From NCBI GenBank assembly GCA_002753335.1, contig PEAD01000031.1:1-34087 (forward strand): a stretch of DNA of 34,087 nucleotides. Direction: 5' to 3'. Numbering within the stretch: the first letter of the stretch is position 1; each line of letters opens with the position of its first letter. Origin of the DNA: Nitrospirae bacterium MYbin3 (GTDB taxonomy: Bacteria > Nitrospirota > Thermodesulfovibrionia > Thermodesulfovibrionales > Dissulfurispiraceae). Made by a program: the position numbers. Positions 15,001 through 18,000 of the stretch are shown piece by piece.

Positions 15001-18000
15001 CCTGTTGACTTGTGCTGTATGATAACAATATAATTTAGCGAATGTAAATAAATACGCGACTAAGAAAACTTATTGAAAGATATTAGGAGGGGCTATGGTA
15101 GAAGCAGCTGGAGTGAGTGAGTATCAGGGTAAGGTGGACTCTGTTGTGCCGGATAAACCAGAAGGGCCTATAGGTCTTGATGTCGGCACCAGCAACATAG
15201 TCATGGCCCAGAATAAAGGCAACAAAATTGTGCTTACAAAACAGCTTAATGCCTTTTTCACCATCCCCCAATCAAAATTTACCAAACAGATTCTTATTCA
15301 GAACGAGATAACATTTTTCGAACATAAAAAACAGTATTTTATAATCGGTGATTCTGCCGAAAACTTCGCCAACATGTTCAACGCCAATTCCAAAAGGACC
15401 ATGGAAAAGGGATTTCTTGCTTTGCGGGAAGATGAAGGCGTAGCCATAATTCAGGCTTTGATCAAGACGCTCGTACAAAGGCCCAAGAAATTCGGCGAGA
15501 TTATCTGCTTTAGCGTTCCGGGCGATGCTTTTGACAATGAAGACAAGGCCTCTCCGTTGAGCGGTCATGAGTCTGTTATTAAAATGTATCTTGAAAGTCT
15601 CGGCTATACTCCTATTGCTATCAATGAGGGGCTTGCGGTTGTCATGGCCGAGCTGGGCGATGACAACTATACAGGAATAGGAATCAGCATGGGCGGCGGC
15701 ATGTGCAACATCTGCCTTTCATATATGTCTGTTCCGGTTATACAGTACAGCATACAGCAGGGCGGTGATGACATCGACGAGCGCGTGGGCCGTGAAGTAG
15801 GGTTGTCAGCAACAAAAGTAAAAGGCATAAAAGAGGAGGGTGTTGACCTCTCCAAACTCCCTAAAAATAAGGTTGAGCTTGCTATCCAGATGTATTATAC
15901 AGATCTGATAAACCAGTTGGTGTTCAGTCTGGAGCATGTTATTTCTTCTTCCAACAAGATACCGAAAATAGCGGACCCTGTTCCTGTTGTAATAAGCGGC
16001 GGTACGGCATCTCCGAAGGGTTTCAGGGAGAAGTTCGAGAGCGCTGTTCAGACCATCAGGCTGCCTTTCGAGATATCTAAGATCGTCATTCCTCAAGACC
16101 CTCTAAGCACCACAGCAAAAGGTGCTTTGGTTATGGCAGTATCTGAGTCGATATAGAGAGGTGCATGCCTTTTTCAGCAGTCCTCTTTTCGGCTGATAAT
16201 CTCAGAGGGGCATTGCTGAGTAAGGCGCTCACAAAGCATGGCTTTGAGGTTTCTCTCCAGAGGAATATCAATACGTTTACGGATGTTCTGAACACAAAAT
16301 CCCCTCAGCTTGTTATTCTTGATAAAGAAGGCGGCTATTTTACCGGTGATCTTGATGTCCTTGGTCCGTTGAGCGTTCTGTTGAAGGGCATACCGGTTAT
16401 CATTGTTTCCAATTCAGCATCTGACGGCTCTTTCAATCTTAAAGATGTTTCTGTGGAGTGGTGCCATTCAAATCCAATTGATCCTTTGGCCGTTGCAACT
16501 AAGGCAAAAAGCCTGCTTGCCGGTTCTGCCCCCAATTTTGTTTCAAAAGAAGCTCCTGAAAAGGACGCGATCACAGAAGATCTGAAGGGCTTTCTCGGCC
16601 TTGAGTAGATAAATAGCAATGAATTACATCCAACCACAGAGTTCACAGAGAGAAAAAAAAACATTTGGGGAAAATAGGTCTTCTCTGTGTTTTTTGGGTT
16701 TTGAATTTTTTAATGCACAGAGTAGTAACTGGCTGTATTTTTTTATTTTAGTTTTTCTCGGTGTGCTCTGTGGTTAAAGATATTTATAATGTCTAAAAAA
16801 GTTATCGCAATAGTAGGACCCAAAGGCGGAGTCGGGAAAAGCACAATCTCTGTAAACCTTGCGATAGCACTTGCAGGAATCGGCAAAAAAGTTATCGCTG
16901 TTGATCTTGATCTCGGCGGTGCAAACCTTCACATTCTTATGGGCCTCAGGAGCTTCAAGCACTCCTTGGATGATTTTATTCTGAAAAAGGTGAAGAGCCT
17001 TGAGGAAATTCTTATAGAGACAGGGATCGAGAACTTGAGTCTCATCTGCGGCGGATCCAATATTCCTGATATAGCCAATATGCCTTTTCAGCAAAAGATG
17101 AAGCTTATTAATCATATTCTAAAACTGGACAGCGACATTGTAATTTTAGACCTCGCCGCAGGATCGTCATTTAATGTTGTGGATTTTCTGATGATCGCCA
17201 ACCAGCGGCTGATGGTAACCACACCAGAGATGACCTCTCTGCTGAAGGCCTATACGTTTATAAAGACCTGTGTCTTCAGGATGCTCACATTCCATTTCAA
17301 AACCACAGATGCTCAGAATGTTCTGGAGATCCTCGAAAAGGCGAAGGACCCTGTTGCGAACCCCCATTTGAAGACCATGCAGAATATTCTGGATGAGGCT
17401 GCAAAGATCAACCCTGCTTCAACGGCTGCTGCAAGGGAATTGATTGCAGGATTCAAGCCGAATATTTTAATTAATATGACCCAATCCGAGAGAGACGCCA
17501 ACGTGGGCAATGTTATTCAGGGAATGCTGAACCAGTACCTCGGCATATTTTCGAGCGTTATAACCACGCTGCCGACCGACCCTATGGTTAAGAAGGCGAC
17601 CTTGCAGACCAAGCCTGTAATGCTGGTTGCTCCGGAATCGGAGTTTTCGATAGCTGTAAGAAGTCTTGCCCTGCAGTGCCTTTAAGCGAATACGGCAGTT
17701 AAACCACAGAGTCCACAGAGGTTTACAAGATAAAACAAGAGCTCACAGAGTTTTTTGTTTTTTTAAAGTCTTATCTCTGTGCTCTCTGTGGTTGGCTTTT
17801 GTTTAAGCCTTGCTTGAGCCTCCCAGCGCATTGGCTATAACATCAGCAAACGACAGTAAGATGTTTTCGTCCGCCGCATCCCTCTTGTGCCCATCTTTCA
17901 CATAGACGTTGATGACGCCCAAAAGACGATCGCCAGCCATGATCGGAACACAGTAATGGCCGTGCGGGTGGCCGTTCGGCTGCAGCACATGCTTCTTATC

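Follow-up and report, generated by a model that had tools for sequence, protein, structure and literature searches.

The locus examined here, in the genome of Nitrospirae bacterium MYbin3, places a small receiver-like gene and the gene of a MinD-superfamily ATPase directly behind mad28, which encodes an actin-like protein, and the question it raises is which of the three products acts on which. The window, i.e., the whole stretch of 34,087 nt that was analysed, is a magnetosome contig, its left part carrying feoB and a DtxR/FeoA gene and its right part mamK, P, M, Q, B, A and E; several histidine kinases are also encoded within it. The trio, namely mad28, a 147-aa gene and mad29, lies entirely on the plus strand and spans 2591 nt, and its open reading frames, including that of a 298-aa ATPase with the deviant Walker A motif KGGVGKS, are as the survey of this genome had described them. 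The features referred to below are the following:

15005..15034, plus strand: putative sigma-70-like promoter TTGACT-N18-TATAAT, 60 nt 5' of mad28, in the gap to the divergent feoB
15095..16156, plus strand: mad28, actin-like protein, 353 aa (Pfam Volactin, E 1.3e-81)
16165..16608, plus strand: pseudo-receiver, putative adaptor, 147 aa (weak Pfam Response_reg match, E 0.011)
16561..16605, plus strand: C-terminal amphipathic helix of the adaptor, residues 133-147 (motif L..DL.GFL.L)
16632..16775, no strand: REP-like inverted repeat between the adaptor gene and mad29 (genome-wide repeat family)
16789..17685, plus strand: mad29, FlhG/FleN-type MinD-superfamily ATPase, 298 aa (motifs K12-GGVGKS, D39/D41, D121, N229)
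17702..17793, no strand: second REP-like inverted repeat just 3' of mad29 (genome-wide repeat family)

The putative promoter agrees with the consensus at 11 of 12 positions, in a region holding 7 sites against 4.7+/-2.1 in shuffles, and is a consensus match only. The window Mad28 has a short N-terminus without the amphipathic helix present in many orthologues. The REP-like repeats belong to a family with 34 arms across the genome, and the one between the adaptor gene and mad29 is not part of the module.

Identity, class and distribution of Mad29

Sequence comparison identifies the ATPase gene of the window as mad29, a magnetosome gene that already bears this name. Its product shares 53% identity over 100% of its length with KJR44077.1 ("magnetosome protein Mad29"), and 45-46% over the full length with AMP41549.1 and KJU86280.1, both named Mad29; all three are entered as Mad29 in the accessible part of supplementary file 3 of PMC11344931. 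A 2.6-kb region with mad28, mad29 and a hypothetical gene is printed in an available passage of PMC9376291, and its agreement with the 2591 nt found here supports the identity. The survey had itself suspected mad29, which is thereby confirmed at the expense of the gene's novelty. That the ATPase is unrecognised is not supported, the protein being Mad29 by name and a relative, QWR76338.1 (adjoining the hypothetical QWR76337.1), being already a "MinD/ParA family protein" in NCBI; the JGI annotation of many homologues is FlhG. In an available passage of PMC9840458, Mad29 has an ATPase domain that perhaps supplies energy for chain bundling.

Mad29 belongs to the ParA/MinD ATPase superfamily on the strength of its motifs, namely a deviant Walker A with the signature Lys, a switch I Asp and a switch II: among 126 relatives, K12 is found in 125, and G16, K17, D39, D41 and D121 in all 126. 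The best NCBIfam match, which the survey had given as MinD, is indeed minD_arch (E 2.6e-31), with 108.7 bits where the cut-off demands 201.75; minD_bact, at 79.2 bits, likewise lies below the curated 212.9. Among solved relatives, FleN and FlhG come first by sequence (E 2.6e-24), and the predicted model (pLDDT 89.6) gives TM values of 0.72-0.73 to FleN/FlhG, 0.61-0.68 to MinD and 0.58-0.65 to Soj/McdA. Between K159 and N229 sits a 54-residue helical insert, rejected as a magnetosome-specific trait since it is carried by 54/54 usable distant relatives (32-40% identity; 63 loci, of which 9 were dropped for want of a usable ORF), none with mad28 nearby. Among 40 sampled neighbours of such distant relatives (37 of the 74 listed, plus 3 added), lgt was found 6 times, a DnaJ plus HTH_25 protein 5 times and tsaD 3 times, HTH_25 being the RodZ-type MreB-binding domain.

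No C-terminal membrane-targeting helix is present in Mad29, where the chain stops at the last core helix; the 126 relatives extend by a median of 1 residue past position 298, with tails of at least 10 residues in 6. As a membrane-targeting tail is the feature behind the membrane patterns of MinD-like proteins, according to the accessible part of PMC11407121, a MinD-type membrane gradient loses its footing in a protein devoid of such a helix. The basic pI of Mad29 (8.9) was also discarded as a sign of DNA binding, the FlhG of the same genome (pI 9.2) being equally basic. That FlhG is encoded on contig C13, in flhA-flhF-flhG-fliA order, and separate FlhG orthologues (50-70%) occur in 5/5 other cassette genomes tested; Mad29, outside any flhF-flhG-fliA context, is not the genome's FlhG. 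The N-terminal motif D/NQAxxLR, by which FlhG activates FlhF (available part of PMC13712777), is absent in Mad29 and absent too in this genome's FlhG as called.

Across 390 genomes of the class, a Mad29-like match was obtained in 23 at E<=1e-85, which reproduces the count of the survey, and in 29 at E<=1e-60, the former threshold losing six true cassette genomes. With Mad28 in 29 genomes (E<=1e-100) and MamM above cut-off in 28, Mad29 is present in 28/29 Mad28-positive genomes, the missing one being 75% complete, and in 24/28 MamM-positive ones. The adaptor family (E<=1e-22) is found in 28 genomes, all Mad28-positive, i.e., 28/29 of those; weak matches near 1e-9, the only ones in 11 further genomes, are taken for ordinary receivers. 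The survey had seen the receiver-like gene between mad28 and the ATPase gene in two genomes (G151 and G061); this is real and far more regular, the adaptor gene lying directly 5' of mad29 in 26/28 genomes. Its count of 20 genomes out of 22 with mad28 beside the ATPase is to be corrected, in that a true mad28 lies 5' in 19, the ATPase of G134 is accompanied solely by a remote volactin-like actin (36%), located downstream in another arrangement, and the 13 kb retrieved around mad29 in G140 contain no mad28. In G140, the stand-alone adaptor stays by mad28 with mad29 elsewhere, and in G026 the full adaptor has moved with mad29 to 1.6 kb from mamK, at coordinates that agree with those surveyed, a degenerate copy (E 9e-5) lying behind mad28.

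Metagenomes were sampled through the best 80 among 554 confirmed matches, taken from 13 of 64 parts. The 17 loci of at least 47% identity have the adaptor 5' in 15 and a whole mad28 in 13, the two without an adaptor seen having less than 200 nt upstream, and the 63 loci at 40% or below have neither adaptor nor mad28. For the adaptor, a first search returned 11 proteins and a profile search reached further; a contig search with a single protein yielded 5 loci. The survey's central observation is upheld, in that an ATPase of the MinD superfamily is closely linked with mad28 and occurs almost only in magnetotactic genomes. Since kin are not independent, no p-value is attached to the linkage of Mad29 with the adaptor and mad28. 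As a unit, the trio can be dispensed with, since three genomes with clear magnetosome clusters (G050, G258 and G259; 95-99% complete) have no match to mad28, the middle gene or mad29. A 51% Mad29 paralogue stands alone, without a cassette, on contig C15 of this genome and in the non-magnetotactic G081, which counts against a purely magnetosomal role; in a quick tree with a long-branch outgroup, and hence an unreliable root, the sequences from G081 and G134 and the paralogue from this genome sit among the cassette proteins, at a fork that the tree leaves open.

Mad29 might be a passenger of the magnetosome gene set, retaining the general function of the insert-bearing subfamily and acting on neither Mad28 nor the adaptor. 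Such a status would suit the stand-alone copies in G140, G081 and contig C15, the different neighbourhood in G134 and the spread of the subfamily without magnetosome genes, but hardly the adaptor directly 5' in 26/28 genomes, and in 15/17 metagenome loci of at least 47% identity against 0/63 at 40% or below (kin not being independent in these counts), so that we consider it quite unlikely. The survey had also allowed that the ATPase regulates polar flagella like FlhG. A motility role, in which Mad29 would link either the pole that bears the flagella or the control of flagellar genes with the Mad28 axis and keep swimming aligned with the chain, is weakened by the separate FlhG here and in 5/5 cassette genomes tested, by the window gene calls, which place no flagellar gene beside the cassette, and by G050, which has an FlhG-like gene but no cassette. 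The nearest solved relatives nonetheless remain FleN and FlhG, many homologues bear the FlhG label at JGI, the paralogue survives in non-magnetotactic G081, and G258 and G259 lack both the cassette and any FlhG-like match at E<=1e-10; taken together, this role appears unlikely.

The middle gene and its predicted contact with Mad28

The product of the middle gene is assigned a receiver fold from a domain match, a predicted model and a fold search. The model displays a (beta/alpha)5 receiver fold at residues 1-120, a flexible linker and a C-terminal helix, and the top fold match is FrzS (PDB 2I6F; E 3.1e-6); hhalign against one CheY gave no match. Catalytic positions were set by alignment to three ordinary receivers of this genome. 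The phospho-acceptor Asp after strand 3, D53, is kept in 25/26 sequences of one alignment and in 37/37 of another that left out the Glu-bearing row. The acidic Mg-binding pair after strand 1 is lost, with S9 in 26/26 and position 10 never acidic, and the receiver Lys after strand 5 (position 103) is found in 0/26. By established receiver chemistry, these losses make a phospho-switch unlikely; phosphorylation of the adaptor is accordingly improbable from its residues, the switch proposed by the survey is not supported in this form, and the retained D53 may still point to some signalling role. The family is marked by the signature FSxDxxRG and C..xP.DP, and the motif L..DL.GFL.L of its C-terminal helix is conserved as far as records named Nitrospinota and Desulfamplus. 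Other members end in helices such as FFQKVLDWIKNF, which look like membrane anchors.

Predicted as a complex of three chains, Mad28, Mad29 and the adaptor attained a score of 0.66, where the best control attained 0.01, and the score was 0.01 once Mad28 was replaced; at least 94% of contacts were shared between runs, and the partner pLDDT was at least 71. Solved complexes pass the mark used for such scores in 116 of 157 cases and mismatched pairs in 2 of 215, figures that carry over only roughly to a three-chain job. The prediction supports binding of the adaptor to Mad28 and is not proof of it. Run with one Mad29 chain and no ATP, it contains no confident Mad29 contacts, which is no verdict on a contact between the adaptor and Mad29. 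The predicted interface brings adaptor residues 13-24 (helix 1) and 102-109 (with the invariant P104) against Mad28 residues 191, 210-215 and 287-293. Mad28 287-293 aligns with TPPELAA of this genome's MreB, the loop in which S284 of E. coli MreB presumably lies. The S284D exchange in E. coli MreB disrupts an intra-protofilament contact (available part of PMC4051119). From this alignment to a filament-contact loop, we infer that the adaptor would cap a filament end or hold a monomer. In no group does conservation of the Mad28 patch exceed that of the remaining protein, and the patch is equally kept in copies without an adjoining adaptor; on the adaptor side, conservation at the interface is 0.56 against 0.46 overall in a raw comparison.

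These data bear on the survey's model of a positioning system that spaces or segregates the magnetosome chains; spelled out, Mad29 would set up a gradient of ParA/MinD type, on the membrane or the nucleoid, with phosphorylation of the receiver as its switch. The ATPase motifs are invariant, Mad29 is tightly linked with the cassette, D53 is kept and several histidine kinases are encoded in the window, all of which would accord with it. The receiver, however, has neither the lysine (0/26) nor the acidic pair, Mad29 has no C-terminal membrane helix and a fold nearer to FleN/FlhG than to MinD or Soj/McdA, and its basic pI is not indicative of DNA binding. As far as tested, a partnership of the receiver with the ATPase, as had been supposed, is not supported either, the receiver gene co-duplicating with mad28 (see below) and its product being predicted to sit on Mad28; we regard a gradient of this kind as decidedly improbable.

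A second mad28 cassette with a receiver-PBP fusion

At locus L056, a 54% mad28 paralogue is followed, after a gap of 6 nt, by a gene of 739 aa, in which residues 1-120 correspond to the adaptor domain (probability 98.5, E 2e-15) and the remainder to a hydrophobic segment followed by transglycosylase and transpeptidase domains (Pfam on P0140). Going by these domains, the fusion protein in the relatives is a class A PBP with a transmembrane segment, which in this paralogous cassette replaces the C-terminal helix of the adaptor. The mad28 paralogue and the fusion occur together in 11/11 such loci fetched (10 genomes), one fusion being split in two ORFs, and the motifs EDxxFxxHxG, GxSTITQQ, SxxK, SxN and KTG, together with the hydrophobic segment, are present in 10/10 whole copies checked. 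In the sister family f8, 20/22 genomes have the fusion, 19 directly behind the mad28 paralogue, with 9 of the 20 calls made from frame length and coordinates only; the G140 copy has no mad28 beside it. Unfused PBP1A exists in addition to the fusion in 4/4 fusion genomes tested. Receiver-PBP fusions are also found in records named Deltaproteobacteria and Desulfobacterales, and none in the window's own genome. Most other Mad28 copies carry an amphipathic helix at the N-terminus that is missing from the Mad28-II proteins, as it is from the window Mad28. No adaptor appears in the stretches fetched for four further mad28 copies that belong to neither cassette (L057, L074, L075 and L079).

Fusion to a wall-building enzyme behind the second mad28 likely ties the Mad28 filament to the cell envelope. 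By analogy with MreB-RodZ-PBP, the Mad28-adaptor modules could even serve mainly in cell shape or wall building, offering a landmark to magnetosomes, with Mad29 positioning wall synthesis. An extra PBP copy beside unfused PBP1A, with catalytic motifs intact, would fit such a function, as would the fusions in Deltaproteobacteria and Desulfobacterales records and the DnaJ plus HTH_25 protein in 5/40 sampled neighbours of distant Mad29 relatives; it is set against the lack of a fusion in the window's genome, the confinement of the adaptor family to Mad28-positive genomes and, in the accessible literature on RS-1, the enrichment of Mad28 in the magnetosome fraction and the reporting of chain rather than shape defects. 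It, too, seems unlikely.

Proposed mechanism and known systems

The reading we favour, tentatively and at somewhat short of an even chance, is that of a Mad28-binding pseudo-receiver anchoring or capping filaments at the cell envelope, together with Mad29 regulating the place or number of Mad28 tracks. It starts from what is directly established, namely gene identity, order and co-occurrence, fold class, the lost phospho-residues, the lack of a membrane helix in Mad29 and the receiver-PBP fusion behind the second mad28. The receiver face of the adaptor is predicted to grip Mad28 at 210-215 and 287-293, a patch that would form the lengthwise filament contact, so that binding would cap an end or hold a monomer. 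The C-terminus of the adaptor would be an interchangeable anchor, formed by a short amphipathic helix here and by the transmembrane class A PBP of the fusion in the paralogous cassette. Mad29, without an anchor of its own, would dimerise with ATP and join the module, possibly via the adaptor helix, and would spend ATP on restricting or positioning Mad28 tracks, much in the way FlhG restricts flagella; the output would be a magnetosome chain placed along the membrane. The Mad29 step is the weakest, its basis being gene order and joint absence only. In a broader form, which we hold to be doubtful, the pseudo-receiver family clamps Mad28 filament ends with swappable anchors, either a Mad29-recruiting helix or a fused peptidoglycan synthase; if true, an ATPase would position the magnetosome skeleton, which would be fixed in the cell wall or take an active part in shaping it.

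In RS-1, deletion of mad28 leaves chains misplaced, Mad28 being needed for chain placement (available part of PMC12748827), and Mad25 was the only Mad28 partner among seven proteins tested by two-hybrid. RS-1 Mad28 also binds liposomes alone and prefers membrane curvature (accessible part of PMC12713370), so that an envelope anchor is not strictly needed, which counts against the anchoring role. The insert common to distant relatives without mad28 and the adaptor moved with mad29 in G026 both speak against the favoured model, as do the unremarkable conservation of the Mad28 patch, the Mad29 paralogue that persists without a cassette and the retained D53.

The gene names and the cluster are known; what is new is the anatomy of the middle gene and the second mad28 operon with its PBP fusion. 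Mad29 may already be called MinD/ParA-like in the supplement of PMC9840458 (Figs S31-32, Mad29 domains) or in the 2013 paper that reportedly defined the mad genes; a text search of the PMC9376291 supplement had no matches. In agreement with the survey, no MinD-type role for Mad29 was found in the accessible parts of the magnetosome and positioning literature searched (including PMC9226615, PMC8784154, PMC8353452 and PMC7951924), nor was the adaptor described or a PBP fusion found in the mad28, mad29 and peptidoglycan literature searched, subscription papers being mostly outside both searches. Experimental work on the adaptor or on Mad29 was likewise not found in that literature, which weighs against the favoured model. 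Reviews contrast carboxysome positioning by ParA/MinD with actin-based magnetosome chains (available part of PMC13052382), two themes that Mad29 would join if the favoured model is true. For the question of how magnetotactic bacteria of the deep-branching groups keep their chains on the curved membrane, the adaptor is a candidate cognate partner of Mad28, and the predicted interface gives residues to mutate on both sides. The second mad28 operon has a cell-wall synthase as partner, a link not found in the literature searched.

Compared with known systems, the Nitrospirota region printed in the available passage of PMC9376291 has the same three genes and the same size as here; in the accessible literature on it, Mad29 is given no subfamily, partner or mechanism beyond "energy for chain bundle assembly", and the middle gene is hypothetical. 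In strain FSS-1, mad28 and mad29 are separated by two locus tags. Mad29 resembles FlhG/FleN (PDB 5J1J, 4RZ2) in Walker A, switch I, switch II and fold, but differs by its 54-residue helical insert, the lack of a membrane-targeting tail and the lack of an adjoining flhF. The MinD-MinE, ParA-ParB and McdA-McdB pairs (accessible part of PMC11407121) likewise comprise a MinD/ParA-family ATPase gene adjoining that of a small conserved protein; here, by contrast, there is no membrane helix, and the small protein has its conserved peptide at the C-terminus and a folded domain predicted to bind the actin. The adaptor is further alike to a protein of Myxococcus, FrzS, which is a pseudo-receiver. Both have a receiver fold missing catalytic residues (FrzS, PDB 2I6F), whereas the adaptor is a distinct family that keeps the phospho-site Asp and stands alone or heads a PBP. 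RodZ and PBP1A are grouped with MreB in the elongasome (available part of PMC4051119), and MamJ tethers magnetosomes to MamK (available part of PMC10653835). As in RodZ/MreB, MamJ/MamK and ParR/ParM, to which no homology is claimed, a small cognate protein would link an actin-like filament to envelope or cargo, for the adaptor as predicted; unlike RodZ, MamJ and ParR, the adaptor uses a receiver fold for this and, in the paralogue, is fused directly to a PBP.

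Neighbourhood of the cassette

The mad28-adaptor-mad29 cassette and the man1-mamK cluster of the window are separated by two gene pairs, and repeats flank mad29.

Features of the window
4666-8364: consecutive vWA, PP2C phosphatase, Ser/Thr kinase and FGE-sulfatase-domain genes
16632-16775 and 17702-17793: one REP-like inverted repeat on each side of mad29
17803-19811: kinase-regulator pair, between cassette and man1-mamK cluster
19909-20660: PIN toxin/Phd antitoxin pair, likewise in between
21217-22377: 386-aa coiled-coil gene with SMC-like matches, upstream of man1/mamK

At two other loci (L033 and L034), the cassette lies nearer to the man1-mamK cluster than in the window; homologues of the coiled-coil gene adjoin the cassette or mad28 there and at L062. 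The repeats have the form AACCACAGAG-N-CACAGAG, and the whole genome contains 34 arms, mostly in facing pairs. The row starting with vWA, presumably of the TerY-associated type, is unrelated to the cassette.

Related genes in other arrangements

Loci in other arrangements
L001:8452-9354: stand-alone Mad29 paralogue (51%), preceded by dapL-folK-yjbQ-like genes
L055:8238-10891 (genome G134): Mad29-like ATPase, 178-aa uncharacterised protein, distant volactin-like actin (about 35%)
L056:6512-9814 (sister family f8): mad28 paralogue, then pseudo-receiver::class A PBP fusion

A PilB/GspE-type ATPase gene converges on the stand-alone paralogue, the context of which is matched in the non-magnetotactic genome G081 (L025). 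Downstream of more distant Mad29 relatives that bear the helical insert (L118, L142, L145, L153, L155) lies a gene for a DnaJ plus HTH_25 protein; the two may form a parallel ATPase-adaptor pair. Among Mad28-positive genomes, G134 is the sole one where the pseudo-receiver is absent. In family f8, the fusion is about 738 aa long, and this second mad28 operon also occurs at L066-L073, L077, L078 and L160.

Volactin-like actins (37-38% to Mad28), preceded by a 170-aa uncharacterised gene, are also present in gas vesicle gene clusters of genomes without MamM (L050, L051, L052, L054), as assigned from GvpL/F and GvpA (Pfam) in L052, an ArsA-like ATPase in L050 and similar ORFs in the others.

Magnetosome clusters without the cassette

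Neither mad28, the adaptor nor mad29 had a match in three genomes (L162, L163, L164) carrying a mamK-mamP-mamM-mamB-mamA-mamE cluster, which makes them natural comparisons for chain arrangement.
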